Position numbers and translations under genes: made by a program
The notes under the pieces: model-generated
What the model was told of the DNA's origin: nothing
Database searches by the model: none
The model's input: the letters and a program-made list of their open reading frames with translations, nothing else
Source of the DNA: Bacillota bacterium
GTDB lineage: Bacteria > Bacillota > Dehalobacteriia > Dehalobacteriales > Dehalobacteriaceae
DNA length: 64,000 nt
Direction: 5' to 3'
NCBI GenBank assembly: GCA_050952465.1
Contig: JBMNKZ010000014.1
Coordinates: 26,613 to 90,612, forward strand
Shown here: positions 1 through 16,358 of the stretch, piece by piece
How the letters are laid out: every line of letters starts with the position of its first letter
Numbering within the stretch: position 1 is the stretch's first letter

Positions 1-595
1 CAGGACGAACTGTATATTCATGGTCTCCGGCAAATATGATTTTGTTGGGGTTCTGATTAACATACTCGCCTAACTGGCTGATCGTTTCGATACCCAGTGC
101 TTCACTGTCTTCTTTAGTCATCATAATGGTATAAGTATTATCCAACGGAGCATAGTCCAACCAAACTATGTTATTGGCGGCATCCTCTTCTTTAACCTTT
201 GCGTAAGCTTCTTCAGGATCGGTTATGGCATTATCATGCTGTAAATGAACCAGCCAGCCGGTACCGGTGTATTCCCAATAAATATCAATTTCGCCATTCA
301 CTAAAGCCGATCTAACCTTATCGGAACCTGCTACATTAGTTTTGTCTTCCACTGTAAAACCAGCGTCTTGTAAAGCTAAAATTGTAATCTGCCCTAAAAT
401 TAATTGTTCGGTAAAGTCTTTGGATCCAACTTTAATCACAACATCACTTTTATCCCCGTCTTCTGTCCCCTCACCTTCCGGAGCATTGCTTTCTTCAGTT
501 GTACTGCCGCCACATCCTGTGATCAAAGATACCGACAACATCAATACCAAAAATAACAATAGACCCTTCATAAGACTAGACTTGCTGAACTTCAT
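1..595 (-). CDS. Glycine betaine/choline-type ABC transporter substrate-binding lipoprotein (3' end runs off the window)
   Basis: Missing from the ORF track because the window edge truncates it. Reverse translation from ATG at 595 (RBS GGAGGAA, 601-607) gives MKFSKSSLMKGLLLFLVLMLSVSLITGCGG, a signal peptide plus lipobox. An in-frame NGEIDIYWEYTGT motif is typical of OpuAC-type binding proteins. It is the last gene of the transporter operon. Confidence 0.8.
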   Translation of the reverse strand, partial: MKFSKSSLMKGLLLFLVLMLSVSLITGCGGSTTEESNAPEGEGTEDGDKSDVVIKVGSKDFTEQLILGQITILALQDAGFTVEDKTNVAGSDKVRSALVNGEIDIYWEYTGTGWLVHLQHDNAITDPEEAYAKVKEEDAANNIVWLDYAPLDNTYTIMMTKEDSEALGIETISQLGEYVNQNPNKIIFAGDHEYTVRP

Positions 596-644
596 ACCGG
601 TTCCTCCTTGTTTTTTATTATTTTAAATTCTGCTTAAACAGTCC

Positions 645-1385
645 TTAAATCTGACTATTATAAGCATAATTTTCAACTAAACCTAAAACATGATCCGCCA
701 GTATCGCCATCAGGCAAGGCCATCCTGCCCCCAAAATCACGATCTGCCACCTGCTGATATTGTTTCCTGCAATGATTAAGTCTCCTAGACCTCCTGCGCC
801 AACAAATGCGGCTAAAATTGCCGTACCGATATTGATGGTAATAGCGGTGCGAATTCCTGCCATAATCACCGGAAAAGCCAAGGGCAATTCAATTTTTGTT
901 AAAATGCGTTTTGGCGTTATGCCCATCCCCCGGGCAGCTTCTATGATAGATTTATCTACACCTAGAATTCCCGCCAGGGTGTTATTGAGTATCGGCAAAA
1001 GGGAGTAAAGCCACAGGGCAAAGATAGCCGTTTTGGACCCAATACCGAGGATCCCCACAAACAAAGCAATCACCGCTAAACTGGGTATGGTTTGCCCCAC
1101 ATTCACCACATTCACCAAAGCCGGGGCATATTTCTTAAACTTTGCCCTGGTCAAAATAATTCCCAGTGGTACGGAAGTAGCAATAGCTAATCCGCCGGAA
1201 ATCAAAATGATATAAATATGCTGCCACAATTTATGGAGAACAATTTGATAGGAAAGAAATCGCCTCACAATGTTATCTTGAGGGTACTCCACCGCATAGT
1301 ATGTATACCCGATTCCCGCTGCTATTAAGATTAAGGGAAGAATGATTGCACTCCAACCGGTCTTGCGCTTCTGCATCGGTGTCAT
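645..1385 (-). CDS. ABC transporter permease (Opu/BPD-type, quaternary amine uptake)
   Basis: 246-aa polytopic membrane protein with a permease EAA-like region (IEAARGMGITPKRILTKIELPLA). It overlaps the upstream ATPase stop by 4 nt. Confidence 0.85.
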   Translation of the reverse strand: MTPMQKRKTGWSAIILPLILIAAGIGYTYYAVEYPQDNIVRRFLSYQIVLHKLWQHIYIILISGGLAIATSVPLGIILTRAKFKKYAPALVNVVNVGQTIPSLAVIALFVGILGIGSKTAIFALWLYSLLPILNNTLAGILGVDKSIIEAARGMGITPKRILTKIELPLAFPVIMAGIRTAITINIGTAILAAFVGAGGLGDLIIAGNNISRWQIVILGAGWPCLMAILADHVLGLVENYAYNSQI

Positions 1386-2479
1386 TGATCACTCACCACC
1401 TCCAGCAAATCATCGATGCCTACAATTCCTTTTACCTTATTTGTCTGGTCAGCCACAAAAACAAACCTCTGGCCCACCGTAAACATCTCAGATAAGGTAT
1501 CTTTTAATCTTGTTTTTTCATCAACAACGGTTTTAGCCTGTCTAATCACACTTTCAATTTTTCCTTCTTCGCCAACTAAATCATCAAGAGAAATATAACC
1601 CACAAGTGTTCCATTATTATCTACTACTGCAGCAGTTTCCGTTTTGTGAGATTCTATCGCTTTTCTCGCTTCCGCGAATCCCATATCACAGTTCACAACG
1701 GCTACACTTTTCATAACTTCTTGACACTGGATGAGATTAAGCCGCTTTAGCGTCCGGTCTCCCCCCACCAGGTTCTGCACAAATTCATTTGCCGGGTACT
1801 GGAGAATCTCATCAGGTGTGCCGAATTGCACCAGGTTTCCTTCCTGCATTACGGCTATTTTGTCCCCCATCTTAATTGCTTCATCAATGTCATGAGTAAC
1901 AAAGACAATGGTTTTTTTGATTTGTTCCTGAACCCGCAAAAACTCATCCTGGAGCTTAGTACGAGTAATGGGATCAAGAGCTCCAAAAGGCTCATCCATT
2001 AACATAATAGGCGGGTCTGCCGCTAAGGCCCTCGCCACGCCTACCCGCTGTTTTTGACCGCCGCTTAAAGCAGAGGGGCGTTTTTTACTATAAATGTCCG
2101 GGTCTAAATCCATCAGGCGGAGAAGATAATCCACTCTTTTTTTGATCCTATTCTTGTCCCAGCCGATTTCCAGGGGTACTGTAGCAATATTTTGCTCAAT
2201 AGTTAAATGGGGAAAAAGCCCTATATCCTGAATCACATACCCAATTCCCAACCGCAGTTTTATTGGGTCAATTTGGCTTGTGTCCTGACCATTTACATAA
2301 ATTTTACCTTTGGTAGGTTCGATTAACCGGTTGATCATTTTCATGGTCGTGGTTTTGCCGCAGCCGGATGGGCCTACAAAAATGCAGATCTCTCCTTTTG
2401 GAATATGTATAGATAGCTCTTTTACAGCGAAACTAACGGAATTAGGGAACTGCTTCGACACTTGCTCCAATCTAATCAA
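1382..2479 (-). CDS. ABC transporter ATP-binding protein with C-terminal CBS pair (OpuCA/OpuBA-like)
   Basis: Walker A GPSGCGKTT, signature LSGGQKQR and Walker B IMLMDEPFGALD, plus a CBS-like C-terminal tail. TTG start with RBS GGAGGTGGAG. Confidence 0.9.
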   Translation of the reverse strand: MIRLEQVSKQFPNSVSFAVKELSIHIPKGEICIFVGPSGCGKTTTMKMINRLIEPTKGKIYVNGQDTSQIDPIKLRLGIGYVIQDIGLFPHLTIEQNIATVPLEIGWDKNRIKKRVDYLLRLMDLDPDIYSKKRPSALSGGQKQRVGVARALAADPPIMLMDEPFGALDPITRTKLQDEFLRVQEQIKKTIVFVTHDIDEAIKMGDKIAVMQEGNLVQFGTPDEILQYPANEFVQNLVGGDRTLKRLNLIQCQEVMKSVAVVNCDMGFAEARKAIESHKTETAAVVDNNGTLVGYISLDDLVGEEGKIESVIRQAKTVVDEKTRLKDTLSEMFTVGQRFVFVADQTNKVKGIVGIDDLLEVVSDQ

Positions 2480-2498
2480 ATTTCTCCACCTCCGGTTT

Positions 2499-3131
2499 TT
2501 ACTTTATCTCAAATCGATGTTGTACAATACTCAAGAGTTTATCTGCAATTAATGTTAAAACAGAAACCATGATAGCACCAATGATCACCATCTTATCATT
2601 AGCACGGTTAATACCCTTAAAAATCAGATCGCCTAAACCTCCTGCTCCAATATAAGCAGCAATGGCTCCAATGCCTATGCCCATGACAACTGCTGTACGT
2701 ACTCCCGCCATGATCACAGGGAATGCCAAGGGAATTTTTATTTTAAACATAATTTTAAAAGGAGAAATACCCATTCCTTTTGCTGCCTCTATGATTGCCG
2801 GGTCAATATTTATAATCCCGGTATATACATTTCGAATGACCGGAAGAAGGGTATAAAGAACCAGTCCGACAATTGCCGGAGCCCTCCCGATACCGAGAAT
2901 AGGAATTAATAAGGAAAACAAGGCGAGGCTGGGTATAGTCATTAAAAAACTGGTAATATTCAAAACGATACGTGCCATACCCCGGTGAAAGGTAATTAAA
3001 ACTCCGATAGTTGCCCCGATCGCAATTGAAATAGCCATGGCAGTGATTACAATGGTTGCATGCTCCATGGTTTGAAACATAATATCATCGAAACGGTCAA
3101 TAAAGAATTCCCAGATGTTAATTTGCCGCAC
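2499..3131 (-). CDS. ABC transporter permease (second Opu-type permease)
   Basis: 210-aa membrane protein, paralogous to 645..1385 (IEAAKGMGISPFKIMFKIKIPLAFPVIMAG). The GTG start at 3131 sits inside the Shine-Dalgarno sequence, so the exact start is uncertain. Confidence 0.8.
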   Translation of the reverse strand: MRQINIWEFFIDRFDDIMFQTMEHATIVITAMAISIAIGATIGVLITFHRGMARIVLNITSFLMTIPSLALFSLLIPILGIGRAPAIVGLVLYTLLPVIRNVYTGIINIDPAIIEAAKGMGISPFKIMFKIKIPLAFPVIMAGVRTAVVMGIGIGAIAAYIGAGGLGDLIFKGINRANDKMVIIGAIMVSVLTLIADKLLSIVQHRFEIK

Positions 3132-3196
3132 CTCCCAGACTTTATTTTTGTCGTAATAGAATGATTAAGGTTGTCTTAGGGCAATAAATAGTTTAT

Positions 3197-3212
3197 TGCA
3201 AATTATATACCA
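3197..3212 (-). promoter_or_regulatory. Sigma-54 (-24/-12) promoter for the Opu-type transporter operon
   Basis: Minus strand reads TGGTAT-ATAAT-TTGCA, against the consensus TGGCAC-N5-TTGCA with correct GG/GC spacing. It lies about 65 nt upstream of the first permease and directly downstream of a sigma-54 activator gene. Confidence 0.6.
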
Positions 3213-3388
3213 ATTATCAAGAGAACTTGGCAGGTGCCAAGCCTCTAGTGCCGACAGTAGCCTTAGTTGCCCTTAGAACTTTCTAAAAAAAGCAACTTTC
3301 TGACAAACTAAAGAACCTAAATTCCCCAGTGATCACTGCCTGATTCGGTATTTTACCTTAAATTATCTACTCATATCCCCCACATTAA

Positions 3389-3479
3389 TGCAATAAAATA
3401 TTGCTCTTATTTTAATTTTATGCAAAACTCTAAGCTTTGTCCAGTTGCAATATATAGTTGCATGCAATGATTTATTGCA
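3389..3479. promoter_or_regulatory. Three TGCAAT-N5-ATTGCA palindromes (candidate enhancer/UAS sites)
   Basis: tgcaataaaatattgc (3389-3404), tgcaatatatagttgca (3446-3462) and tgcaatgatttattgca (3463-3479). They lie 180-270 nt upstream of the -24/-12 element. A related palindrome, gcaataaatagtttattgc, sits at 3181-3199. Confidence 0.35.
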
Positions 3480-4911
3480 TGTATTGGGTAATATTATATC
3501 GTTTAATTCTATATTGTAATGCTTGCCGAAAGATGCCCAGGTCTTGAGCTGTTTGAGTAATATTACCTTTATTTTTATGAAGTGCATCCTCGATTATTTT
3601 CTTTTCAATTTCCTTAAGTATTTCATTTAACTTGCCGTTAGGCTTAATCAAGGCCTGATATTTATGGACCTGTCCCAGAAACCGGTTACGCAAGTAAGGG
3701 GGGAAATGATCTAAATCCAGTACTTTTTCCGCTGGGTCAACCATATTCATCCCACTTTCAATAAAATGCTCCAATTCTCTGACGTTCCCCGGCCAGGAAT
3801 ATTTCATAAACAATTTAAATAATCTGTCCGAAATATTTTCAATGGAAGTTCCAAACTCTTTGTTATACTTTTTTATAAAATAGCGTAATAGAATTGATAT
3901 GTCGTCCATTCGTTCCCTTAGGGGCGGAATATGTAAGGTCACCGCCGCTAAACGATAATACAGATCCTGCCTGATCTGCTTGTCTCTGACTGCCTCGATA
4001 GGATCTTTATTAGTTGAACTGATAATTCTACAGTTCACGGTTTGTTGGGTATTGCTGCCAATCCTCCGTACAGATTTTTCTTGAATCACTCTTAACAGCT
4101 TTGCCTGTAAATGCAGCCCCATAGAATTAATTTCATCTAAAAATAATGTCCCGTTTTCCGCTTGTTCAAACAATCCCGGAGCCTCAACCGCCCCGGTGAA
4201 AGCTCCTTTAACCGTGCCAAAAAGCAGGCTTTCCAGCAAAGTCTCCGGAATAGCAGCACAATTAATTGCGATGTAAGGGCCGTTAGCGAATGCCCCGTAA
4301 TTATGTATACTCTGGGCGAATAATTCCTTACCCGTCCCGGTTTCCCCGCAAATCAGCACGGAAGAATTATTTCGCGCTATCTTTTTCGCCGTTTCTATAA
4401 CCTGAATGATATATTCATTGGAGCCAATAATATCATCAAAGGTAAACTTTGTTCCATTGTTCTTATTGCTTTTTTTGCTGCCGCTTAAACGTTGCTGTAA
4501 TTCGATGGTTTTATCCAGAAACTCTTTCATCTTTGTGACATCCCGATTAACGGAATAAGCACCGACAATTTCTTTCCCTTCGTAGTAAGGAAAGGTACTG
4601 GCGATAACATCTATCCTCTTGCCGTCGACGGTATTATATTGATGGTATTGTTCCAATACCGGTTTGCCCGTGCGCATTACATTAAGGTGGACGCTGTTTT
4701 CCTCTGTCACATCATATACTTCTGTAATTTTTTTGCCCACTACCTCATCCCGCTTTAATCCTTCAAACTGTTCGCTGGCCCGGTTATAGAGAATAGTTAT
4801 TCCCTCTGTGTTGGTAAGCTGTACTCCTTCGTGAATTGCATCCAGTACCGTTCTCAGCCATTTGTTTTCCCGTTTCAGTTGGTTTAGTTCGGTGTTGAAT
4901 TTATCTTCCAC
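3472..4911 (-). CDS. Sigma-54-dependent transcriptional activator (PAS-AAA+-Fis HTH)
   Basis: N-terminal PAS-like region, Walker A GETGTGKE, the GAFTGA sigma-54 contact motif, and a C-terminal HTH (NITQTAQDLGIFRQALQYRIKRY). Confidence 0.9.
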   Translation of the reverse strand: MEDKFNTELNQLKRENKWLRTVLDAIHEGVQLTNTEGITILYNRASEQFEGLKRDEVVGKKITEVYDVTEENSVHLNVMRTGKPVLEQYHQYNTVDGKRIDVIASTFPYYEGKEIVGAYSVNRDVTKMKEFLDKTIELQQRLSGSKKSNKNNGTKFTFDDIIGSNEYIIQVIETAKKIARNNSSVLICGETGTGKELFAQSIHNYGAFANGPYIAINCAAIPETLLESLLFGTVKGAFTGAVEAPGLFEQAENGTLFLDEINSMGLHLQAKLLRVIQEKSVRRIGSNTQQTVNCRIISSTNKDPIEAVRDKQIRQDLYYRLAAVTLHIPPLRERMDDISILLRYFIKKYNKEFGTSIENISDRLFKLFMKYSWPGNVRELEHFIESGMNMVDPAEKVLDLDHFPPYLRNRFLGQVHKYQALIKPNGKLNEILKEIEKKIIEDALHKNKGNITQTAQDLGIFRQALQYRIKRYNITQYMQ

Positions 4912-4953
4912 TAAGCGACACCCCGCATATGAATTAGGATTTTTAATGCTATA

Positions 4954-5754
4954 CTATACATGCCCGTAATAATCCCTGTGTACCACAACTGAATATGCAT
5001 AATCCAACAATGTCCCCCAGCTAAAAATGGGTAAATCAATTTCCCTTTGTACGGCTCTGGCAAATGGCTGCATCCCGGTACATTCCAGCATCACCGCACC
5101 AACATTAGGATGTTTAACGCACATATCTTGACACATTCTGATCATGTCCCGTTCAGCTTTGTCATAGTGACACTCTGGAATTAGGGGACGTTTGCTGTGA
5201 TCCCACAATGCGTCAAATTGAGTACAGTTATACTCGTCTTCTGCACCGATAATGAAAAAATTGCTATTTAAATCTATTCCTACGCTTTCTAAATGCCTGT
5301 CGGATAAATATTTCTTTTGGGCTGAGACAATTCCCACTGATTTTTTAGGGCCGATCACCCGTTGAATCAAAGGTACCTGTAACAAGCTAGACATAAATAC
5401 AGGTATATCTACATATCCGGCAACCTCCTTTTGAAAATATGCGAAATAACCGCATTCTGCGGCAATTGCCCGGCAGCCCATACCCTCCAATTTTTTTGCC
5501 GCACGGAGGATAGGCTCAAGACAAGGACTTTTATCTTCAGCACAAACTAAAGTATAGGTGTCTACACCTTCCGCTACTTCATACTGAATCGGGTAAGGAA
5601 ATGCACTGGCATTTCTCACATCTCCGGGAAAACCGGGATAAGCATCATCCAAAATAATAATTCCTAAACCCATCCCATAGCAGCAATGGTTTTTACGGGT
5701 TTTTATATAATTAATACCTAGATCACGATTGCCATACCACAAAGTTCTTTTCAC
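4954..5754 (-). CDS. Asp/Glu/hydantoin-racemase-superfamily-like protein (function unknown)
   Basis: The N-terminal LGIIILDDAYPGFPGDVRNASAFPYP pattern resembles uncharacterised Asp/Glu racemase-family proteins, judged from memory only. It is tightly linked to the upstream MttB-family gene (13-nt gap). Confidence 0.4.
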   Translation of the reverse strand: MKRTLWYGNRDLGINYIKTRKNHCCYGMGLGIIILDDAYPGFPGDVRNASAFPYPIQYEVAEGVDTYTLVCAEDKSPCLEPILRAAKKLEGMGCRAIAAECGYFAYFQKEVAGYVDIPVFMSSLLQVPLIQRVIGPKKSVGIVSAQKKYLSDRHLESVGIDLNSNFFIIGAEDEYNCTQFDALWDHSKRPLIPECHYDKAERDMIRMCQDMCVKHPNVGAVMLECTGMQPFARAVQREIDLPIFSWGTLLDYAYSVVVHRDYYGHV

Positions 5755-5767
5755 CCGCCCTTAATCT

Positions 5768-7201
5768 TTATTTAATCCCTGCCTCAGTTTTCCATTTATC
5801 TTCCAGTATTTCTAATTCCTTGGCGATTTCATAAGAAACAATATTTAAGGTATGATTTTCTAAAATATCTATTGTCTTCTCCCTGGCCTTTTTATTTACC
5901 GTCGGCACATGATCCGCCTTAGACCGATCAAGCATTTCCGGATACCAGCATTCTTTAAAGTGTTCAAAGGTATGCTGCTGGTTTAAATAATGTCCGCCGG
6001 GGGGTATACTTCTCATTACATCTAAAGCCAGTGTTTCAGAATTTACTTTTACACCACGCCTAAAAGGTTGCAACATGTTTATTATTTCATTTGTTATTAC
6101 CATGAGTTCAGGAGATATGACCCGGGAATGATGCATAAAACCAACGTCATGGGCAAAGTCAGCTCTTCCTAAAACCGATAGGAGACAGGACATAGTAGCC
6201 TCCATGATAGCTTGAGCATCAAGAGATTTAGCATCGGTCGTACCTGCAGTACCATAAAAGGGCAGTCCATAGAAAGAGGCAATTTCTGCTGAAGCAGCCA
6301 CTAATATTGTCAGTTCCGGAGACCCATAAGTACCAATAGTTGTTCTCATATCCATCATGGTAGGCATGGCTCCAAAAACAAAGGGGGCTCCTGGTCTCTT
6401 AAGCTGGTGTATTACAAGACTACTGAGGACTTCGGCAGTACACTGGGCTAAGGCTCCGGCAAAGGTAACCGGAGACGTTCCTCCCAAGGTACAATAAGGC
6501 AAAGATATAACGGGGATTTTTTTATCAGCACAGGTAAGTAAGTTTCCCAGAGACGAATCCGCATTAATTCTGGGGGAAATCGGGTCGTACAAATAGAAAA
6601 TAAAAGGTTTATCAGATAATTCCTGATATCCTCCTGCTGCTACAGCAGCAGCTTCAATAATATCCGAAGAAGCATGGTGATCCCCACTGATACAAAAGCA
6701 AATAGGCTTATCGGTATGCATTAATGTATTTTTAAAGCATACCCTGTCGGAAATTCTAGGATCCACATCGGCATCTTCGCCACCGGTTTGAATAAACTTT
6801 AGGTTCGGTAAATAATCAAATACTTTTATAACTTTCTTTTGATGTTCAAAACAATAGCGTTCGGTTTTACCACTATAGGGATCAAGATATTCCAGACTTT
6901 CCAGACAAGTACCGAAATACAACTGTCCTTCCCCTATTTTCATACTTGGCCGGCCTGACCTGTCAAAAATCGAGAAAGACTTTGGTGCTGATTCTATTGC
7001 ATCCGTCACAAGTTGCGGGGGAATCTTAACTAAATTGTTTTTTTCAATTACAGCTCCAGCACCCTCTAGAAGATCCCGTGCCTCCCTATTAAATACTGCG
7101 ACACCAAGCTCATCCAATATAATTAAGGCCGTCTCATGAATGTCCTTGATTTTTTGATCGGTGAGAACTTTAACTCTAATGCTATTGCTAAAGTTAAGCA
7201 T
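5768..7201 (-). CDS. MttB-superfamily (trimethylamine methyltransferase family) protein, non-pyrrolysine type
   Basis: 477 aa. The length and N-terminus (LTDQKIKDIHETALIILDELGV...ARDLLEGAGA) are typical of the MttB family. The ORF is uninterrupted, with no in-frame TAG. ATG start with RBS GGAAGG. Confidence 0.8.
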   Translation of the reverse strand: MLNFSNSIRVKVLTDQKIKDIHETALIILDELGVAVFNREARDLLEGAGAVIEKNNLVKIPPQLVTDAIESAPKSFSIFDRSGRPSMKIGEGQLYFGTCLESLEYLDPYSGKTERYCFEHQKKVIKVFDYLPNLKFIQTGGEDADVDPRISDRVCFKNTLMHTDKPICFCISGDHHASSDIIEAAAVAAGGYQELSDKPFIFYLYDPISPRINADSSLGNLLTCADKKIPVISLPYCTLGGTSPVTFAGALAQCTAEVLSSLVIHQLKRPGAPFVFGAMPTMMDMRTTIGTYGSPELTILVAASAEIASFYGLPFYGTAGTTDAKSLDAQAIMEATMSCLLSVLGRADFAHDVGFMHHSRVISPELMVITNEIINMLQPFRRGVKVNSETLALDVMRSIPPGGHYLNQQHTFEHFKECWYPEMLDRSKADHVPTVNKKAREKTIDILENHTLNIVSYEIAKELEILEDKWKTEAGIK

Positions 7202-7339
7202 GCATTAACCTTCCTCTCCCAGGAGCGAACCTTATCCCAACAATTAGAGTTACTCCTCTATGTTCGACATGATAAAGTTGAACCCTCTTTATTTTTGATT
7301 TTTTTCTTTAGAATCCCAGATCACCCACATTTACCATAT

Positions 7340-8539
7340 TTATACATCCTGGTTTTTGCTGCTTCTATATGATCCGGCTAATAGCTCTATGGGATGAAAA
7401 ACTTTTTGACCTGTTCCTCCTGTTAACTGCAAACTGCACATTCCACAGTCGGTCACGATTCCATCTGCATTCGATCCGGTAACATCCTGAAAAAGCTTCT
7501 CCCCAATAGCTGCGGAAATTTTAAACTTTTCTTTTTTAAAACCATAAGTACCGGCCTGGCCGCAACACTTTTGTTCCCCTTGAACCATTATTAGTTCCGG
7601 AATTAGTTCCAGCAATTTAACGGCCGGTGTACCCATGCCCTGGGCTTTGGTATGACAAGGCTGGTGGTAATAATAGCGTCTTTTTAGGGGTAAGAATTGT
7701 CCCACGTCCACTAATTGATAATCCAGCAAGAACTCACAAATATCATTGACTTGAGAGGCAACCTTGTTCCCATGGGAAAAACCATATAATTTATAGTCCT
7801 GCTTTAGGCTTAAAGTACAACTGGGGCAAGATGCTACAATTAAGTATCCTTGATCCACCAGTTTGCTTAAAACCTCCAGGTTGAATTCCGCATTCTTCTT
7901 AGCTTCATCGGTTAAACCATTGGATACCAGAGGTACTCCACAACATTTTTGAGGCGGAACTACTACCTCCACGCCGCATTTTTTTAAGATATTTACCACA
8001 GATTGAGCAATTGCAGGACTGTTATAACGACTGTAACAACCTGTAAAATAGGCCACCTTTAACTTTGATTTTTTTGACTGAGAAAAATCAGGTTTATATG
8101 AAAATGCTTTTTGATAGGTGGGAAAGGGACGGTTTTTAATGCCAAAAATTTTTTCTACTAAACCTCTAATAGATGAAGAACTTAAAGTCAGGTTAACTAA
8201 ACCTGGTATGCAGGAAGCCAACCGGCTTACTATCTGATTATGTCCTAAAATCCGATCCCGGAAAGGAATTCCCTTATCCCGTCTGCCTTTAACCTTGGTC
8301 TCTTCTATCAATGAGACGATTTCCACCCCATTGGGACAAGCCAATTGACATTGACGGCATCCTATACAATAGTCCGCCATTTCAACTTCCGCCCCCCTTA
8401 AATCCCTAAGTCTTGCCATCTCAGGCCCTAAAAATTTCGGTCCGGGATAAAGGGGATTTACAGCATATACCGGGCAGACAGTATTGCAGGTACTGCACTT
8501 TAAGCATAAGTCAATAGTATCTTTTTGCTGCTCTCTCAT
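7340..8539 (-). CDS. glpC: Anaerobic glycerol-3-phosphate dehydrogenase subunit C (Fe-S / CCG-domain)
   Basis: Two CxxCxxCxxxCP ferredoxin motifs (CLKCSTCNTVCP, CIGCRQCQLACP) plus cysteine-rich CCG repeats. The ATG at 8539 follows the glpB stop by 1 nt. The track ORF starts at GTG 8551. Confidence 0.8.
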   Translation of the reverse strand: MREQQKDTIDLCLKCSTCNTVCPVYAVNPLYPGPKFLGPEMARLRDLRGAEVEMADYCIGCRQCQLACPNGVEIVSLIEETKVKGRRDKGIPFRDRILGHNQIVSRLASCIPGLVNLTLSSSSIRGLVEKIFGIKNRPFPTYQKAFSYKPDFSQSKKSKLKVAYFTGCYSRYNSPAIAQSVVNILKKCGVEVVVPPQKCCGVPLVSNGLTDEAKKNAEFNLEVLSKLVDQGYLIVASCPSCTLSLKQDYKLYGFSHGNKVASQVNDICEFLLDYQLVDVGQFLPLKRRYYYHQPCHTKAQGMGTPAVKLLELIPELIMVQGEQKCCGQAGTYGFKKEKFKISAAIGEKLFQDVTGSNADGIVTDCGMCSLQLTGGTGQKVFHPIELLAGSYRSSKNQDV

Positions 8540-8540
8540 T

Positions 8541-9809
8541 CTATCCTTCACCCCACTCTCTACCAGCAGTAAAACCGGTGGCGATATCTACCCCACCAGT
8601 ACTTTTTTCCCCTATCCCGTCAAAGCTGGCCAATATACTCCCGGCTGCACATAGATTGGCAAAAATAGGACGTCCTTTTTCGTCCACCGGATACATGTTC
8701 TCATCTACCCGAATACCAAAACAGGCATAAGGTTGGTCTGCCCAAAAACTGCTTCTGCTCCACGTTTCAACATTTTCGCGATAGTATAAGGGCAGATTAA
8801 AAAGGGGTTCTCTTACCCACCCCGGTCCGGATACCAGGCCATCAGAAGCTAAACCTCCGGTAGCAAGAATAATTTTTTTTCCTTGAATAGAAGTTGTCTT
8901 CCCCGGGGTTGCCACCCGAACACTTTTTATCTCATCTCCTTTGATAACTGCATCAAGGACAGGAAACCCGGTGATGTACTCAATGCCTTTTTTACAAAGC
9001 AGCATAGAAAGACAGTGATGGAATCTAATACCCGGTACGCTGGGAGGGATGGTAGGAATCTCAAAAACTTTCCTGCCGGTTCCTTCTTCAATTTGTGCTA
9101 AAACCTGCCTGTGATTAGATAATCCTAAAATTGCCGGAAAGCCTATTTTTTCTTCCTTATCTAATTGGGAGAGTAGTTGTTTGATGATATCTTCCACCTG
9201 ATCAGGGTTATCAAGAACCAGAGCCAAATCATAAGCAGAAATTACCCGGGAATAAGTTTTTTCCAGCTTCAGTTTACCCCAGTCAGCTTTACCCTTGATG
9301 CCAAGCCGCCGGTATTCTTTTAATATATTTGTTGCCACAAGCTGAGGAGAAAAATTAGAGAATCCTTCAACACCGAATATCTTGATTTGTTCTCCCTGTC
9401 TGATGTCACCTTGGGCTAGGGATAGAGGTGCTAAATAAGTTGGTCTGACCATGCCTAAAGCTGTAGGGATAAGAAAATTACCCCCATTCCTATAAGTAAG
9501 AAAGGATAAACTACAATCCTCCAATTGTCGGCTAAAATATTTCATGGCCTCTCCAATCCTTGTCTCCCCCAGTATTTGGTAAGGGTGGTTTAGAGGAAGT
9601 TTATCCATCCATAGCCAAGGGTCTTTTATCGCCCTGCCCTGCCTAGATCCCAAGAGATCAATAACTCCCGGGCCATAATAATAGGAACCAAAACCTTTTG
9701 TAATAATTAGCACTGTGTTTCCATGAGTTTTGGCACTTAAAGCAGCGGTCAATCCGGCTAAGCCTCCGCCAATCACTACCACATCATATTTTCTATGGAT
9801 TTTGTTCAT
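8541..9809 (-). CDS. glpB: Anaerobic glycerol-3-phosphate dehydrogenase subunit B
   Basis: FAD-binding N-terminus YDVVVIGGGLAGL, positioned between glpA and glpC. Preferred start is ATG 9809 (MNKIHRKYD) with RBS GGAGGGG. It overlaps the glpA 3' end by 17 nt. Confidence 0.75.
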   Translation of the reverse strand: MNKIHRKYDVVVIGGGLAGLTAALSAKTHGNTVLIITKGFGSYYYGPGVIDLLGSRQGRAIKDPWLWMDKLPLNHPYQILGETRIGEAMKYFSRQLEDCSLSFLTYRNGGNFLIPTALGMVRPTYLAPLSLAQGDIRQGEQIKIFGVEGFSNFSPQLVATNILKEYRRLGIKGKADWGKLKLEKTYSRVISAYDLALVLDNPDQVEDIIKQLLSQLDKEEKIGFPAILGLSNHRQVLAQIEEGTGRKVFEIPTIPPSVPGIRFHHCLSMLLCKKGIEYITGFPVLDAVIKGDEIKSVRVATPGKTTSIQGKKIILATGGLASDGLVSGPGWVREPLFNLPLYYRENVETWSRSSFWADQPYACFGIRVDENMYPVDEKGRPIFANLCAAGSILASFDGIGEKSTGGVDIATGFTAGREWGEG

Positions 9810-11328
9810 TTCTTTCAACCCCTCCTTCCCCAGCGAGAAAATCTGCATAGATCCGACGCATTAATTCACCCTCTTTGATGGTAGAACCCCAAAAAACGGG
9901 CTGCATTCCCTTCCATCTTTCTTTATAAAAATTTAAAAGGACAGGGTCTAAATCCATTTCCTCTGAAGGAAGATAGTTTTTTAATACATTTAAAGCCCGG
10001 TAAGTACAGAAAGTTCCTTGGCAAGTGCCCATACCCAGCCTGGTTCTCCGTCTTAAATCATTAAGGTCAAAGCACCCATCATTTATTATGGCCTCCTTTA
10101 ATTGAGACTCCCTGATTTGCTCACACTCGCAGATTAATTTATCTTCAACCTTTAATTTCCTTTTGGAGTCTGCATTGAAATGTCCCGGCAATATTTCCTG
10201 ATAAGTACGACAGGGACTGTTTTTCCCCAATTTTTTGACCGCTAAATCCCCTGTTTTTTCCGCCATTAAACGATAGGTGGTAAATTTACCTCCTATAACC
10301 GATATAAAGCCGGACAAACCATCAATAGATTCATGATCTAAGATAAAGAAATCCCTGGTCACCTCTCTTCCCTGATTGCCTTCTATTTTCTCCCCTGACT
10401 GGTAAAGTGGCCTTACCCCGGCAAAAGCCCGAATTATTCTTGCTTCCCCCAGGGATGGAAACATTTTTTGTCCCAGAGCCAAAAGTTTTTTTACTTCCCA
10501 ATAATCCACGCGGTCGCAATCTGCTTCCTTTACATCAATAGAGGTAGTACCGTAGATAGAAATGGAATGGTGGGGAACCAGAATATCGCCGTCACCCGGC
10601 TCTTGACAGCGGTTAATAATAGTACCGGTTAAACGCCGGTTAAAAACCAGCAGTGCCCCTTTATTTAAGATCAGGTTTAAGTTTAAACCTACCAGTTTGG
10701 CTATTTCTCCTGCCCAAGGCCCCCCGGCATTAATCACCATTTGGCAGAAAATAAATTCTGTCTCACCCGTTGGTTTTCTGACGGTGACACCAATCACCTT
10801 TCCGGAAGAAACAGAAATTGAAACGACTTGGGTATAGGTAAAGATTTTAGCTCCATATTTTTTTGCAGAGGCGATATTTTCCAGTACCAGCTTAAAACCG
10901 TCAACTGCAGCATCAGGAACCTGAAATGCCCGGCGAATATTTCGACTTAACAAAGGTTCTTTTTTTGTTAGTTCCTGAGGATCAATTTCCTGATAACTAA
11001 TCCCTGTTTCCCTACAGGCAAACCGCCATTTCTCTACATAAGCAGAGTCGTCTCCCTGAAGCTCTAAAAATATTCCTCCGGTGTTTTCAATGCAATGGGG
11101 AGCAATCTTTTTGAGTATGGCATTTTCCATAATACATTCTCGAGCTGAATTGGGATCATTAACCGCATAACGGGCCCCGCTGTGGAGCAGTCCATGGAAA
11201 CGGGCTGATGTTCCATTGGCTAGATCCCCTTTTTCCACCAGTATCACACTTATTCCCCGCATAGCCAGATCCCGGATGATTCCAGTGCCGGTGATGCCTC
11301 CGCCTATAACGACTACCTGAGTTTCCAT
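9793..11328 (-). CDS. glpA: Anaerobic glycerol-3-phosphate dehydrogenase subunit A (FAD-dependent)
   Basis: VVVIGGGITGTGIIRDLAMRG dinucleotide fold, FHGLLHSGARY, and a C-terminal BFD-like [2Fe-2S] segment (CECEQI...CQGTFC). Confidence 0.85.
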   Translation of the reverse strand: METQVVVIGGGITGTGIIRDLAMRGISVILVEKGDLANGTSARFHGLLHSGARYAVNDPNSARECIMENAILKKIAPHCIENTGGIFLELQGDDSAYVEKWRFACRETGISYQEIDPQELTKKEPLLSRNIRRAFQVPDAAVDGFKLVLENIASAKKYGAKIFTYTQVVSISVSSGKVIGVTVRKPTGETEFIFCQMVINAGGPWAGEIAKLVGLNLNLILNKGALLVFNRRLTGTIINRCQEPGDGDILVPHHSISIYGTTSIDVKEADCDRVDYWEVKKLLALGQKMFPSLGEARIIRAFAGVRPLYQSGEKIEGNQGREVTRDFFILDHESIDGLSGFISVIGGKFTTYRLMAEKTGDLAVKKLGKNSPCRTYQEILPGHFNADSKRKLKVEDKLICECEQIRESQLKEAIINDGCFDLNDLRRRTRLGMGTCQGTFCTYRALNVLKNYLPSEEMDLDPVLLNFYKERWKGMQPVFWGSTIKEGELMRRIYADFLAGEGGVERNEQNP

Positions 11329-11504: not shown

Positions 11505-12089
11505 CTAAGAACTCTGTTTATCCTGATTATACCACCATAAATCAGAATTGCCAATAGAAACTGCCAGAGCTCCGGCATTTAAAACTTGGTCAATATCCTC
11601 TTGATCCTCAATTAACCCACCGGCAATAATAGGTTTGCCGATTCTTGATTTAACTTGACTGATAATTTTGGGCATTAATCCCGGCATTATCTCTACCGCA
11701 TCCGGTTGATTTTCCTCCACCGCGTGAATCCCAGTTTCTACTGCAGTAGAATCCACCAGGAATAATCGTTGAATTGTCCTTAAATCATGTTTTTTTGCGG
11801 CTTTTATCAAGGTACTGCGGGTAGTAATAATCCCATCCGGCCTTATTTCCCGGGCAATGAATTTCACAGCGGCCTTATCTCCCGCAATACCCCCCATTAA
11901 ATCCAAATGGGGAAAAACCGGGATATGATGTCCCCTGGCATAATCTACATAATCAGCCAACACATTGATATCTCCCGCCAATAAGAAGATAGCAGCTATG
12001 GGGGCATTAACAGCCTTTTGTAGCTGTTTTTCATTGCGCACAGCTGCAATAATCTTTTCTTTCTTAAAGAAATCCTGTAATTCCACCAT
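11505..12089 (-). CDS. glpP: Glycerol-3-phosphate-responsive antiterminator GlpP
   Basis: 194 aa. IIAAVRNEKQL...HIPVFPHLDLMGGI...IITTRSTLIKAAKK matches the GlpP family pattern. Confidence 0.85.
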   Translation of the reverse strand: MVELQDFFKKEKIIAAVRNEKQLQKAVNAPIAAIFLLAGDINVLADYVDYARGHHIPVFPHLDLMGGIAGDKAAVKFIAREIRPDGIITTRSTLIKAAKKHDLRTIQRLFLVDSTAVETGIHAVEENQPDAVEIMPGLMPKIISQVKSRIGKPIIAGGLIEDQEDIDQVLNAGALAVSIGNSDLWWYNQDKQSS

Positions 12090-12810: not shown

Positions 12811-15201
12811 CTAAAAACTTTTATGCTCAGTCCTGGTGATAATTTCATCCTGCAGGGCCTTATCCAGATTATTGAAGTAATCGCTGTAACCGGCTACCCG
12901 AACGATTAAGTTATTATATTTAGCCGGATTCTTTTGGGCATCCCTTAAAGTTTCAGCACTGACAACATTCAACTGGATATGGTGTCCGTCCATCTTGAAA
13001 TAAGCGCGAATTAAATCCTTAGCCTTAGTAAGGCCTTCCTCATCGGCTAGTAGTTCCGGAGTAAATTTCTGATTCAACAAAGTGCCCCCGGTTCTTAAAT
13101 GATCCATTTTGGCTGCAGATTTAATTACAGCTGTAGGCCCTTTTCGATCCGTTCCCTGAACAGGGGAAATCCCTTCAGAAAGGGGCATCTCTGCCAAACG
13201 GCCGTCGGCTGAAGCACCTATTACTGAACCGAAATAGACGTGACAGGTAGTAGGTAGCATTTCAATGATATATTTTCCCCCGTATACTGTCTTTCGACCG
13301 GTAATTTCGTCATGGTAGGCATTGAAAACTTGGAGCATAATTTCGTCAGCATAATCATCGTCATTGCCGTACTTAGGTGTTTTATTAAGAAGCATCTGAT
13401 GAATCTTTTCTTCTCCTACAAAATTATTCTCCAGAGTATCCAAGAGTTTTTCCATGGTTAGATTTTGATGATCAAAAACGTGATATTTAATGGCCGAGAG
13501 TGCATCAGTAATACTGGCGATACCTACTCCTTGGATATAGCGGGTGTTGTATCGAGAACCACCCTGATTATAATCTCTGCCCTTCTTGATACAGTCTTCA
13601 GTAATCACAGACAGGAAGGGGGCAGGCATATATTCTCCGTAAAGCCTTTCAATTACCTGGTTGCCTCTGATTTTAATCTCTGCAAAATGATGGAGCTGTT
13701 TTTTAAAGGCATCCATTAATTGATCAAAGTTAGTAAATTCCCGAGGATCCCCTGTTTCTATACCAATCTTCTTACCGGTTTTCGGATCCACCCCATTATG
13801 CAGGGTAATTTCCAAAACCTTGGGTATGTTGAAATAACCCGTAAGTATATAGGCTTCTTTGCCAAAACAACCTACTTCCACGCAGCCGCTGGTACCGCCG
13901 ACGCGGGCATCCTCTAAGGTTTTCCCGTTACGCAACAGCTCTTGTACTACCGCATCCGTATTAAAGACAGAGGGGAAACCCATTCCTTCCCGAATCACCC
14001 TTAAAGCTGCCATGACAAACCGATCGGGATTTTTCCGGCTGATCTGCACATTGGTGCTGGGCTGGAGAGTTCTCATTTCATCTATAATCTCCAGGAAAAG
14101 ATAAGAAAGCTCATTCACCCCATCAGTTCCGTCCGGCTTAATACCGCCAAGATTAATATTACAGAAATCCGTATAAGTGCCGCTCTCTTTCAAGGTAATG
14201 CCCACCTTGGGAGGGGCCGGCTGGTTGTTTACTTTCACCCAGAAACATTCCAGAAGTTCTTTTGCCTGCTCCCGGTTCAGGGTACCGGCTTCAACTTCTT
14301 TTTCATAAAAAGGATAAAGGTGCTGGTCGAATTTTCCCGGGCAGAAGGAATCCCAGGTATTCATTTCCGTAATGACACTTAAGTGCACAAACCAGTACAT
14401 TTGAATGGCTTCCCAGAAGGTTCTGGGGGCATGAGCGGGAACCCAATCGCAAACTTCTGCTATTTTCTCAAGTTCTTTCTTACGGACGGGATCCTTTTCC
14501 GTACCCGCCATTTCCCGAGCCAGATCCCTATGCCGCTTACCAAAGGTAATTACCGCGTCACAGACAATAGCCATAGCCTTTAATTCTTCCCGCTTATCAT
14601 AAGCTTCCGGATCATTTAAAAAGTCCAAGGAGGCAATTTCCTGTTCAATTTCCGCCTTGAAATCAAGAAAACCTTTTTTATAATAGATATCTCCTCCCAC
14701 GGTATGGCCGGGAGCCCTCTGCTCCATAAATTCTGTAAAGATACCGGCCTCATAACAATCCTTCCACTCATCGGTCATCTGGTCAAAAAGGAGATCCCGC
14801 ATGGATCTGCCCTGCCAATAAGGAATGATCACTTCTTTTTGAATTCTCTTAGTTTCATCATCCACCCGGAAAAAAATCTTTTCCCGTTGATCGATGACAT
14901 CAAAGTCTTCACCGGAATGGCAGCAAAGTTCCGGATAAGTAGGAGCAGATTGGGGAGCCGGGCCCCTTTCCCCGACAATTAATTCTCCCTCATTAATCAC
15001 AACGGTTTTATTTTCCATAAGATGTTTAAAGGCAAGTGCTCGAAGGACGGGAATGGATACCTTTCCGGCATATTTTTTATAGGCTTCTGTAACCAAAACT
15101 GCTCTCTCAATAGAGAGGGTGGGTACTGTGGTTACACTTTGTTCTCTTAACTTTGCGATACGGTCGTTCATACCGACTTCTCTTCTTAACACAGTGCTCA
15201 T
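12811..15201 (-). CDS. Glycyl radical enzyme, PFL2/glycerol-dehydratase ('eliminase') family; HypD-like (trans-4-hydroxy-L-proline dehydratase) by resemblance
   Basis: C-terminal glycyl radical motif LIVRVAGYSDYF and Cys-loop GGTSGCVEVG (Cys + Glu, as in dehydratase/lyase GREs). The FTEFMEQRAPGHTV and WVKVNNQPAPPKVGITLKES blocks look HypD-like from memory. Preferred start is ATG 15201 (RBS GGAGG), 5 nt after the activase stop. Confidence 0.85.
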   Translation of the reverse strand: MSTVLRREVGMNDRIAKLREQSVTTVPTLSIERAVLVTEAYKKYAGKVSIPVLRALAFKHLMENKTVVINEGELIVGERGPAPQSAPTYPELCCHSGEDFDVIDQREKIFFRVDDETKRIQKEVIIPYWQGRSMRDLLFDQMTDEWKDCYEAGIFTEFMEQRAPGHTVGGDIYYKKGFLDFKAEIEQEIASLDFLNDPEAYDKREELKAMAIVCDAVITFGKRHRDLAREMAGTEKDPVRKKELEKIAEVCDWVPAHAPRTFWEAIQMYWFVHLSVITEMNTWDSFCPGKFDQHLYPFYEKEVEAGTLNREQAKELLECFWVKVNNQPAPPKVGITLKESGTYTDFCNINLGGIKPDGTDGVNELSYLFLEIIDEMRTLQPSTNVQISRKNPDRFVMAALRVIREGMGFPSVFNTDAVVQELLRNGKTLEDARVGGTSGCVEVGCFGKEAYILTGYFNIPKVLEITLHNGVDPKTGKKIGIETGDPREFTNFDQLMDAFKKQLHHFAEIKIRGNQVIERLYGEYMPAPFLSVITEDCIKKGRDYNQGGSRYNTRYIQGVGIASITDALSAIKYHVFDHQNLTMEKLLDTLENNFVGEEKIHQMLLNKTPKYGNDDDYADEIMLQVFNAYHDEITGRKTVYGGKYIIEMLPTTCHVYFGSVIGASADGRLAEMPLSEGISPVQGTDRKGPTAVIKSAAKMDHLRTGGTLLNQKFTPELLADEEGLTKAKDLIRAYFKMDGHHIQLNVVSAETLRDAQKNPAKYNNLIVRVAGYSDYFNNLDKALQDEIITRTEHKSF

Positions 15202-15205
15202 ACAA

Positions 15206-16123
15206 TTAACCTCCAATCTTAACATCTACCACATAGGGACTTAGTATCTTTTTCAGTTCTTCCATTCTTTCTTCTTTGGGAGGCTGTACCTCACCTAATA
15301 AATAAGTTTTATCCAGAAGTTCATACTTAGCTGCGGCAATTTCATGATAGGGGAGTAAAAAGACTTTTTTAATCATCAGGGAGCTAATAAACTCGCCTAG
15401 GCTTTTTATGTTTTCTTCGCTGTCATTGATTCCCGGAATAATCGGTACCCGAATCCAAATATTTTGATGAATTTTAGAAAGTTTCGCTAAGTTTTCCAGT
15501 ATAGTAGTATTGGGAACACCGGTATATTTTTTATGGGCTGCATTATCCATATGCTTCAAATCATATAAAAATAAGTCGACCTTACCGGCAACAGACTCCA
15601 AAGTCTCCCATCTAGCATAACCGCTGGTGTCCAGGGCAGTATGAATACCTTTGTTTTTGCACGCATCCAACAGTGATATTAACAGTTCGGGCTGGAATAA
15701 TGGTTCCCCGCCGGAAAAGGTAACTCCCCCGCCGGACTCATCAAAAAACATCTTATCTTTTTCAATTTCTTTCATGATGTCTTTAACCGTACTGTCCTTA
15801 CCTATCAATTCCAGAGCATTAGTAGGACATTTTTCTGCGCAAAGCCCGCATAATGTACATAAATCCTTATTAATGATGACGCCCTTTTCTCCAAAGGTGA
15901 GTGCCCTTTCAAGACACAGGTTAATACAATCACGACACCCAATACATTTCGCATTTCTATAAATTAGCTGACTCTTCTTCTCAATGCTTTCCGGATTATG
16001 ACACCACCAACAGTTAAGAGGACACCCCTTAAAAAATACTGTGGTACGAATACCCGGCCCATCATGGATAGAATAGTGCTGGATATTAAAAATTTTCCCC
16101 TTTTGCAATAGCCCCACTCCCAA
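15206..16123 (-). CDS. Glycyl-radical enzyme activating enzyme (radical SAM with extra ferredoxin-like clusters)
   Basis: DGPGIRT, the radical-SAM CPLNCWWCHNPE motif, and two additional CxxCxxCxxxC motifs (CIGCRDCINLC, CTLCGLCAEKCP). The start is ambiguous, TTG at 16123 or 16108. Confidence 0.9.
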   Translation of the reverse strand: MGVGLLQKGKIFNIQHYSIHDGPGIRTTVFFKGCPLNCWWCHNPESIEKKSQLIYRNAKCIGCRDCINLCLERALTFGEKGVIINKDLCTLCGLCAEKCPTNALELIGKDSTVKDIMKEIEKDKMFFDESGGGVTFSGGEPLFQPELLISLLDACKNKGIHTALDTSGYARWETLESVAGKVDLFLYDLKHMDNAAHKKYTGVPNTTILENLAKLSKIHQNIWIRVPIIPGINDSEENIKSLGEFISSLMIKKVFLLPYHEIAAAKYELLDKTYLLGEVQPPKEERMEELKKILSPYVVDVKIGG

Positions 16124-16192
16124 TGATAATCTCTTTTGCTATAACATTTTATTAATATTTTATTTTCCGTTTCTCCATTTATAAAAAAATAA

Positions 16193-16208
16193 AGCAATTT
16201 CCATGCCA
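16193..16208 (-). promoter_or_regulatory. Sigma-54 (-24/-12) promoter for the GRE activase/GRE operon
   Basis: Minus strand reads TGGCAT-GGAAA-TTGCT. It lies about 70-85 nt upstream of the activase start and downstream of the sigma-54 activator gene. Confidence 0.7.
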
Positions 16209-16298
16209 ACTCTTAAGAGTGGATGGAAATTTATAAAAAGGCGTTAATCCGGTATTACCGGCTATTCTATTCTCTCTTTAAAAAAATGTTTTTGTTAT

Positions 16299-16358
16299 CG
16301 TCTTAATTTTAGGACAAAAATCTTAATTATTTTTTGACTGCGTCCCAAATTTAGGACA
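16299..16358. promoter_or_regulatory. Two 18-nt imperfect palindromes (candidate enhancer-binding sites)
   Basis: cgtcttaattttaggaca (16299-16316) and cgtcccaaatttaggaca (16341-16358). They are 42 nt apart centre to centre and lie about 100-150 nt upstream of the -24/-12 element. Confidence 0.45.

Follow-up and report, generated by a model that had tools for sequence, protein, structure and literature searches.

A conserved island pairing an Arg-less MttB-family methyltransferase with a racemase-like protein in a bacterium of the Dehalobacteriaceae

Which reaction is served by an MttB-family methyltransferase whose gene is followed by a racemase-like gene, a sigma-54 activator and a betaine/choline-type importer, with no corrinoid protein gene nearby? 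This question is raised by one end of a 64,000-nucleotide (nt) stretch of DNA, referred to here as the window (C14:26613-90612, C14 being contig JBMNKZ010000014.1), from a bacterium of the Dehalobacteriaceae with a genome of 3.1 Mb in 14 contigs. An earlier reading of the letters (the sequence-only reading) had described the methyltransferase as a non-pyrrolysine (non-Pyl) MttB homologue and the locus as a substrate-inducible module for the uptake and conversion of a quaternary amine, possibly a chiral one. It allowed that the corrinoid components might be encoded elsewhere or that the chemistry might be different. We found a conserved pairing of an Arg-less MttB with a racemase-like protein, in a conserved sigma-54 island that also contains glycerol genes and a gamma-lyase; this represents a new form of corrinoid-dependent betaine methylotrophy that lends itself to testing. 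Genes in the window were called from the listing of open reading frames (ORFs) together with Pfam and NCBIfam hidden Markov model (HMM) scans. The two genes at the centre of the question are

7201-5768, minus strand: MttB1, 477 amino acids (aa); Pfam MTTB 271 bits over residues 9-464
5754-4954, minus strand: RACE, a PRK07475-family protein of the Asp/Glu/hydantoin-racemase superfamily; NCBIfam NF005679 269 bits (cut-off 231)

MttB1 belongs to an Arg-less subfamily

The HMM match confirms that the 477-aa protein belongs to the MttB superfamily, and it is non-Pyl as had been read: there is no in-frame stop, and Thr321 aligns with the TAG codon of the four Pyl-type paralogues of the genome. MttB1 could be aligned to the MtgB structures 2QNE and 9YCE (E=1.6e-52, 424 residues) and to 7XCL (E=4.6e-50). 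In MtgB of Desulfitobacterium hafniense the glycine betaine site consists of Y97, R312, H348 and F356. R312 forms a salt bridge with the acidic group of the substrate and is conserved in MtgB, MtpB, MtcB, MtyB and MthB, all of which have acidic substrates; the aromatic pair Y97/F356 is not conserved outside MtgB (PMC13080624). We mapped these residues by HMMER alignment to 9YCE and by an L-INS-i alignment of 137 MttBs. MttB1 carries L/Y/H/S at the four positions: H348 is conserved, whereas Y97 is replaced by Leu, R312 by Tyr316 and F356 by Ser. As judged from these alignments MttB1 is without the carboxylate-binding Arg that is kept by every characterised non-Pyl member. The absence of this Arg, which defines all of the characterised quaternary-amine enzymes, had not been noticed in the sequence-only reading. 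Because the aromatic pair is not conserved outside MtgB, its absence argues only against a specificity for glycine betaine. The 119 nearest database homologues of MttB1 have Tyr or Phe in the R312 column and are all Arg-less. Two further MttBs of the same island, described below, read S/W/H/G (MttB2) and A/R/H/F (MttB3), so that the Arg is kept within the island by MttB3, together with the His and the Phe.

In the MttB tree an Arg-type half, many members of which read exactly YRHF, is separated from an Arg-less half that includes the Pyl-type enzymes of this genome. After addition of the 119 best database matches the MttB1 clade received SH-like support of 0.985-1.0. MttB1 is the sole paralogue from the host genome in this clade, which also contains all 31 MttBs that adjoin RACE or an Octopine_DH-family gene in other phyla. 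An initial placement of MttB1 as a plain orthologue of these RACE-near "clade A" MttBs was refined when the 119 sequences were added, since it forms a distinct branch inside the same supported clade. All module loci with a clade-A MttB (31/31) also carry at least one Arg-type MttB.

When the clade was sampled from the MttB side, independently of RACE, a racemase-family gene adjoined the MttB gene in six of six members, namely Zhaonella, two metagenome-assembled genomes (MAGs), Formimonas, Desulfosporosinus orientis and one deltaproteobacterial MAG. The RACE protein of D. orientis is 69% identical to that of the host; the deltaproteobacterial one is 34% identical and retains both Cys residues described below. 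The large, well-supported Arg-less subfamily of MttB1 nearly always neighbours a racemase-like gene in distant bacteria.

The racemase-like protein

With 26.3 bits RACE falls below the 31-bit cut-off of Pfam Asp_Glu_race, and it is the PRK07475 subfamily model that it matches above threshold. Translation probably begins at the TTG at 5742, which would make the protein 262 aa in length, because the Shine-Dalgarno sequence is better spaced there and homologues are uniformly 261-263 aa long. RACE has 1863 database homologues. Sequences from Clostridia, Eubacteriaceae, Halanaerobiaceae and Desulfobacterales are 70-86% identical, and across 12 diverse sequences about 140 of the 262 positions are invariant, including C97 (AAECGYF) and C221 (MLECTGM; 262-aa numbering).

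A sequence search with RACE against the PDB gave no match. The AlphaFold2 model (pLDDT 70, pTM 0.73), in which the N-terminal 52 residues are unresolved, shows with moderate confidence a two-domain pseudo-symmetric alpha/beta fold. Its top Foldseek matches were 1JFL, 2EQ5, 2VLB and 2GZM (probability 1.00, TM 0.45-0.60); aspartate, glutamate, hydantoin and allantoin racemases, arylmalonate decarboxylase and maleate isomerase were all matched. RACE would therefore share the fold of the Asp/Glu/hydantoin racemase superfamily (PF01177), although it is only 12-20% identical to its solved members. In the model C97 and C221 sit at strand-to-helix junctions of the two domains, which is where the catalytic Cys pair of this superfamily is located; judged by secondary-structure position only, they may be its counterparts. 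On the basis of this model a two-base epimerase is the most economical reading of RACE. The N-terminal region of about 50 residues contains an invariant CYGMG-GI and a YPGFPGD motif, for which the model resolved no counterpart in the superfamily.

We also scanned species-representative genomes for RACE and analysed the best 80 of the 374 loci obtained. In 58 of these 80 an MttB gene is located within 10 kb of RACE, in 48 even within 400 bp. An MttB gene no more than 10 kb away is seen in 29 of the 35 loci that have 8 kb or more of sequence on each side. Other companions in the best 80 loci are Octopine_DH-family genes (29), BCCT transporters (26), corrinoid proteins (25), sigma-54 activators (22), methylcorrinoid:tetrahydrofolate methyltransferases (MT2, 14) and a cupin resembling dimethylsulfoniopropionate (DMSP) lyase (5). 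RACE is found, among others, in Eubacterium limosum, E. callanderi, several Acetobacterium, Geosporobacter, Dethiosulfatibacter, Maledivibacter and many marine Desulfobacterales. A chiral substrate, as suggested earlier, is a reasonable inference, since MttB genes of different phyla have kept the racemase-like partner as a neighbour. Full-text searching of the literature for a pairing of MttB with a racemase gave nothing relevant.

A second paralogue, RACE2 (66% identical; L127 11068-11859, where L127 is C9:149000-168999), is encoded in another sigma-54 island of the host. This consists of a promoter, two MttB genes, an Opp-type ABC transporter, RACE2, a further promoter and the large and small subunits of AcnX, and ends with an insertion sequence element (HTH_28 and rve ORFs) followed by a sigma-54 activator that is split into two ORFs. 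Formimonas has a similar locus (MttB-RACE ... AcnX-RidA). Five Desulfobacterales modules (L081 17651-18391, which is L029, as well as L079, L086, L096 and L100) contain an Octopine_DH-family gene, two or three MttBs, RACE and a transporter and end in a DMSP-lyase-family cupin, which hints that sulfonium compounds may be handled by the same loci.

Corrinoid partners are encoded in trans

As the sequence-only reading had noted, no corrinoid gene is present within 7 kb of mttB1; the nearest one on the contig lies about 100 kb away. In the host genome we found 21 MTTB-family genes, nine B12-binding matches, about five of which are corrinoid proteins of approximately 210-230 aa, two pterin-binding MT2 proteins and two RACo/RamA-type activases. 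Corrinoid protein, MT2 and RamA-type activase are thus all available in trans, in agreement with the proposal that they are encoded elsewhere. The pair nearest to the window (L024 5257-6714) is

C14:133257-133883: corrinoid protein
C14:133916-134710: pterin-binding MT2

L030 and L122, which are the two closest metagenomic relatives, have genes for a corrinoid protein (75% identical to that of the host pair) and an MT2 (86%) directly upstream of BCCT-MttB1-RACE. Because these orthologues adjoin MttB1-RACE there, the products of C14:133257-134710 are the likely trans partners of MttB1. Several genomes of Desulfobacterales and Clostridia have their corrinoid and MT2 genes within the module. Likewise, mtpB, mtcB and mtyB of E. 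limosum are encoded away from mtqC, mtqA and ramQ (PMC8604678). The missing local corrinoid gene, which had been taken as unusual, is the ordinary, published norm and lends no support to corrinoid-independent chemistry.

A choline/ethanolamine-kinase-family gene (L024 3766-4737, minus strand) is divergently adjacent to the corrinoid/MT2 pair (together C14:131765-134713). It recalls the kinase-dependent phosphocholine system MthK/MthB/MthC/MthA of E. limosum, in which MthK is described as serine-kinase-like (PMC12155760). In addition, four MttB paralogues of the host (C8:332288, C7:224564, C5:350810 and C9:273317) have an in-frame TAG at residues 328-334, the pyrrolysine position, and a gene for the PylS C-terminal domain is present at C9:268892-269614 (365 bits, cut-off 178). 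From these four genes and PylS, this spore-forming Firmicute is very probably a pyrrolysine decoder with true trimethylamine (TMA) methyltransferases.

Extent and conservation of the island

All genes that had been described (MttB, racemase-like gene, PAS sigma-54 activator and Opu-type importer) are present as a co-directional array on the minus strand, but the unit proved to be twice as large and reaches from glpP to MttB3. In transcription order the part inside the window contains, around MttB1 and RACE,

11505..12089, minus strand: glpP, glycerol-3-phosphate-responsive antiterminator and first gene of the conserved island; Pfam G3P_antiterm 216 bits
11328-9793, minus strand: glpA; NCBIfam GlpA 651 bits (cut-off 553)
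9848-8541, minus strand: glpB; NCBIfam GlpB 239 bits (cut-off 174)
8551-7340, minus strand: glpC; NCBIfam GlpC 419 bits (cut-off 278)
7202..7339, minus strand: glpC-mttB1 spacer, 138 nt
4911-3472, minus strand: PAS / sigma-54 AAA+ / Fis-HTH enhancer-binding protein; Pfam Sigma54_activat 216 bits, PAS_9, HTH_8
3463..3479, strand not assigned: operator-like palindrome TGCAAT-N5-ATTGCA
3212-3197, minus strand: consensus sigma-54 promoter TGGTATATAATTTGCA, 65 nt upstream of the first permease gene
3131-2499, minus strand: OpuC/ProU-type importer, first permease
2479-1382, minus strand: importer ATPase, ProV-type with CBS domain; TIGR01186 372 bits (cut-off 327)
1385-645, minus strand: importer, second permease
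595 to past base 1, minus strand: OpuAC binding protein, cut by the window edge; 326 aa when complete

The genes glpABC (7340..11328, minus strand), directly upstream of mttB1, encode an anaerobic glycerol-3-phosphate dehydrogenase. MttB1, RACE and the activator are joined by spacers of 13-25 nt and 42 nt. The importer is of OpuC/ProU type, as its components show: a ProV-type ATPase carrying a CBS domain, a pair of permeases and a binding protein that in its complete form scores 212 bits with OpuAC. It has no equivalog-level match (OsmF 211 bits against a cut-off of 400).

The window cuts the unit, and the part listed above is its upstream half. Contig sequence past the left edge contains, in this order, the complete binding-protein gene, a strong intrinsic terminator, a palindrome, a sigma-54 promoter, MttB2 (483 aa), a pyridoxal phosphate (PLP) enzyme, glpK and MttB3 (464 aa). 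The last four genes are separated by gaps of 11, 13 and 2 nt. The PLP enzyme belongs to the Cys/Met family and is closest to methionine gamma-lyase (MGL), with 511 bits just under the cut-off of 550, whereas glpK encodes a true glycerol kinase (741 bits, cut-off 590). Altogether this is a conserved, accessory island of about 18 kb comprising glpP-glpABC, MttB1, RACE, the activator, the Opu importer, MttB2, the MGL-like gene, glpK and MttB3.

Zhaonella formicivorans (L121), which is outside the 30 nearest relatives of the host, matches the host island in all 12 genes and in their order, except that BCCT replaces Opu: GlpP-GlpA-GlpB-GlpC, sigma-54 enhancer-binding protein, BCCT, MttB1, RACE, MttB2, MGL-like, GlpK and MttB3, at 49-86% identity (76% for the activator orthologue). 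L122 contains corrinoid protein, MT2, BCCT, MttB1, RACE, MttB2, MGL-like and MttB3 genes, and beside them are genes for homoserine kinase and homoserine dehydrogenase. In a member of the Desulfobacteraceae (L038) we found an Opp-type ABC transporter, MttB2 (66% identical), a Cys_Met_Meta_PP enzyme, an MttB of the YRHF type and RACE. Within the host's own family RACE is present in only 5 of 31 relatives and is lacking in a genome of the same genus; because of this patchiness the module is accessory and probably mobile.

By tblastn glpK and glpA are single copies in the host genome and have no counterpart in its closest relatives, which suggests that the glycerol genes travel with the island. 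We also considered an ancestral glp operon split by an insertion and rejected it as the sole explanation, given that the same-genus genome lacks both glpK and RACE and that the interleaved gene order recurs in Zhaonella.

Just upstream of glpP, at 12811-17858 of the window, lies a separate sigma-54-controlled locus for a glycyl-radical enzyme (804 aa) and its activase, with its own PAS/sigma-54 activator and a consensus sigma-54 promoter at 16208-16193.

Regulation

The island activator has the AAA+ domain and helix-turn-helix of a sigma-54 enhancer-binding protein; its best NCBIfam match is PrdR, with 420 bits against a cut-off of 795. Since rpoN is present in the host and -24/-12 promoters with upstream palindromes occur in the island, a sigma-54 regulon is predicted, as is the binding of the activator. 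The exact palindrome TGCAAT-N5-ATTGCA has only two copies in the 3.1-Mb genome, each upstream of a consensus sigma-54 promoter. The first (window 3463-3479) precedes the promoter of the transporter operon, a layout that agrees with the substrate-inducible uptake proposed earlier. The second (C14:26043) precedes the promoter TGGTACGGATTTTGCA (C14:25899), 74 nt before the MttB2 start codon. The palindrome and promoter layout between RACE and MttB2 is conserved in Zhaonella, L122 and L030. The intrinsic terminator after the binding-protein gene, just outside the window, stands between the two operons.

The claim that all genes are co-regulated with the transporter therefore stands in part. It is well supported for MttB2-MttB3. 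MttB1-RACE has no operator copy, and its co-regulation would follow by analogy with Zhaonella, in which a further sigma-54 promoter lies ahead of BCCT-MttB1-RACE. In the 138-nt glpC-mttB1 spacer a terminator scan detected no coding-strand terminator and pattern searches no operator palindrome, so that read-through into MttB1-RACE is possible.

In both operator-containing spacers a related element of about 50 nt is located between operator and promoter (window ~3225-3280 and L022 ~18075-18130). Its sequence, GCAACTAAGGC...GGC...GAGGCTTGG...GCCAAGTT, resembles a REP-type repeat or a shared regulatory module.

Proposed pathway

We consider it fairly probable that the island imports and degrades a methylated betaine-type amino-acid osmolyte by means of three MttBs, corrinoid partners in trans, RACE and a gamma-lyase under sigma-54 control; stepwise demethylation of a chiral amino-acid betaine is our best guess. 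The Opu-type ABC importer would bring in the osmolyte, and we infer that the three different MttBs strip its N-methyl groups one after another, MttB3 being of the Arg type like the characterised enzymes for acidic quaternary amines, MttB2 and MttB1 being Arg-less. Each MttB would methylate the shared corrinoid protein encoded at C14:133257-133883, from which the MT2 at C14:133916-134710 would hand the methyl group to tetrahydrofolate, with RamA-type activases encoded elsewhere holding the corrinoid reduced. RACE may be an epimerase that needs no cofactor and works with two Cys residues; it would invert the alpha-carbon either of the substrate itself or of an intermediate that has lost part of its methyl groups. 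Once demethylated, the amino acid would be degraded by the PLP enzyme of the gamma-lyase family. For the PAS/sigma-54 activator we predict binding to TGCAAT-N5-ATTGCA and control of, as a minimum, the transporter operon and the MttB2-MGL-glpK-MttB3 operon.

A physiological precedent for stepwise demethylation by MttB-family proteins is 'Candidatus Formimonas warabiya', for which several such proteins were proposed to demethylate one skeleton successively (PMC9768040). There, too, an MttB gene (product 47% identical to MttB1) is directly followed by a racemase-like gene. PMC9768040 gives this gene no role, however, and glycine betaine is achiral; the pair is not listed under searchable names in the proteome supplements of Formimonas. 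The MtpB, MtcB and MtyB systems of E. limosum resemble the island in that a substrate-specific non-Pyl MttB is encoded beside a transporter and a sigma-54/Fis-type regulator, while the shared corrinoid protein (MtqC), MT2 (MtqA) and activase (RamQ) are encoded elsewhere (PMC8604678). Both genomes have many MttB paralogues, 21 in the host and 42 in E. limosum. They differ in that MttB1 belongs to the separate Arg-less clade and is coupled to a racemase-like gene, two more MttBs and a PLP lyase, a combination undescribed for MtpB, MtcB and MtyB.

Several observations weigh against this pathway. MttB1-RACE-activator, lacking an operator copy, has only a weak -24/-12-like element TGGGATAAGGTTCGCT (7239-7224); its transcription may come from glpABC by read-through or run constitutively at a low level. 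Pyl-type TMA enzymes share the Arg-less half of the tree, so the substrate of MttB1 might be a non-acidic methylamine, and loss of the Arg is not obviously expected for a tertiary amine that still bears a carboxylate. The model of RACE has a pLDDT of only 70, and the equivalence of its Cys residues to known catalytic ones comes from secondary-structure position only. As sole genome copies, glpK and glpA may simply be the glycerol genes of the organism. Finally, in some Desulfobacterales (L051 6772-12107; L037, L043, L045) a RACE that is about 75% identical follows carB, with a gene for an old-yellow-enzyme-type oxidoreductase next and no MttB within 10 kb; the role of the RACE family may not be tied strictly to methyl transfer.

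Alternative explanations

A possible, if on balance unlikely, alternative is a proline-ring betaine as the substrate of MttB1-RACE, be it proline betaine or a hydroxyproline betaine. Its first methyl group would be taken by an Arg-type MttB and its second by the Arg-less one. An aerobic pathway for these betaines reportedly involves a 2-epimerase of the enolase superfamily, HpbD, and RACE would be its anaerobic Cys-Cys counterpart, feeding a D-specific or ring-specific enzyme. The logic is alike, in that a betaine is epimerised, loses two N-methyl groups in succession and passes to a stereospecific enzyme downstream, whereas the parts differ (enolase fold and Rieske/flavin demethylases against Cys-Cys racemase fold and corrinoid methyl transfer), so that the parallel is a lead and not a test. 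In many modules the MttBs that adjoin RACE and a BCCT or Opu transporter number just two, of which one is Arg-type and the other belongs to clade A. The Octopine_DH family, found in 29 of the best 80 RACE loci, oxidises N-alkyl-D-amino acids, and a DAO-family oxidoreductase gene stands beside MttB-RACE in L091. AcnX occurs in the second RACE island of the host and in the Formimonas locus (PMC5144071). Proline-ring betaines thus fit the broader module, with its two MttBs, Octopine_DH or DAO dehydrogenases and AcnX, better. At the locus itself the fit is poorer: the host genome has no Octopine_DH homologue, and three MttBs and a gamma-lyase are found instead. PrdR as best family match of the activator would agree with a proline-related substrate, but its score is far below the cut-off. 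In addition, as far as the account cited in PMC9303578 goes, E. limosum reportedly stops at N-methylproline with MtpB (WP_038353400.1) as its single induced MttB.

Distinctly unlikely in our view is a degradation of homoserine betaine or of the glyceryl ether of this compound, which forms the head group of DGTS (diacylglyceryltrimethylhomoserine), a betaine lipid of algae. The three MttBs would strip three N-methyl groups, the MGL-like enzyme would gamma-eliminate (O-glyceryl-)homoserine to 2-oxobutyrate, ammonia and glycerol, and GlpK and GlpABC would oxidise the released glycerol. In its gene context, from which all of the evidence comes, the host locus suits such a scheme, with exactly three different MttBs, a near-cut-off gamma-lyase and a true glycerol kinase in one sigma-54 operon, glpP-glpABC at the head of the island and the full arrangement conserved in Zhaonella. 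L122 retains the MttB-MGL core with the two homoserine genes beside it, and homoserine betaine is a real marine osmolyte (PMC6753628, PMC11166142). Nevertheless, the scheme leaves no obvious role for a racemase-like enzyme, glpK is missing from L122 and L038, the possibly ordinary nature of the single-copy glpK and glpA counts against it as well, and an ether oxygen is a poor gamma-leaving group. A still bolder version, to which we attach little probability, would make this the first pathway by which homoserine betaine, or the glyceryl-homoserine-betaine head group of DGTS, is catabolised. Three dedicated corrinoid-dependent MttBs would take off the N-methyl groups in turn, MttB1 and its Arg-less subfamily being the first MttBs specialised for tertiary or secondary amines, with a new Cys-Cys epimerase family setting the stereochemistry and a gamma-lyase freeing glycerol for GlpK/GlpABC. 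If true, this route would be the chemical reverse of BtaA/BtaB biosynthesis.

It is also quite improbable that RACE is, instead of an epimerase, either a decarboxylase or isomerase of the same superfamily, like arylmalonate decarboxylase and maleate isomerase, or a non-catalytic partner needed by Arg-less MttBs; this grading covers both forms jointly. Removal of a carboxylate, for example, would leave a non-acidic methylamine as the true substrate of MttB1, consistent with the missing Arg and with its grouping in the tree half that holds the TMA-specific Pyl enzymes. Foldseek scores for arylmalonate decarboxylase and maleate isomerase were similar to those for the racemases, and 70-86% identity of RACE across phyla suggests unusually tight constraints. 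On the other hand both Cys residues of RACE are invariant, while arylmalonate decarboxylase has only one Cys of the pair, and the gene context does not suggest a malonate-type or unsaturated substrate.

That the MttB homologue works by different chemistry without a corrinoid protein, as the distance of about 100 kb to the next corrinoid gene on the contig and the differences from the MtgB active site might suggest, can be dismissed as highly improbable, with orthologous corrinoid and MT2 genes adjoining MttB1-RACE in L030 and L122 and lying inside many other modules, the full machinery present in trans in the host and trans encoding a documented norm (PMC8604678).

Implications

Non-Pyl MttBs are among the largest enzyme families of anaerobes with few substrates known, and they govern the yield of trimethylamine and methane from osmolytes in guts and sediments. 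In annotating them, an MttB gene without a neighbouring corrinoid gene should not count as an anomaly. The module described here occurs in tractable acetogens (Eubacterium limosum/callanderi, Acetobacterium) as well as in abundant marine Desulfobacterales. Solving the MttB1-RACE pair would give the PRK07475 family a function and would add a new substrate class to corrinoid methylotrophy, possibly with complete rather than single demethylation of a betaine.

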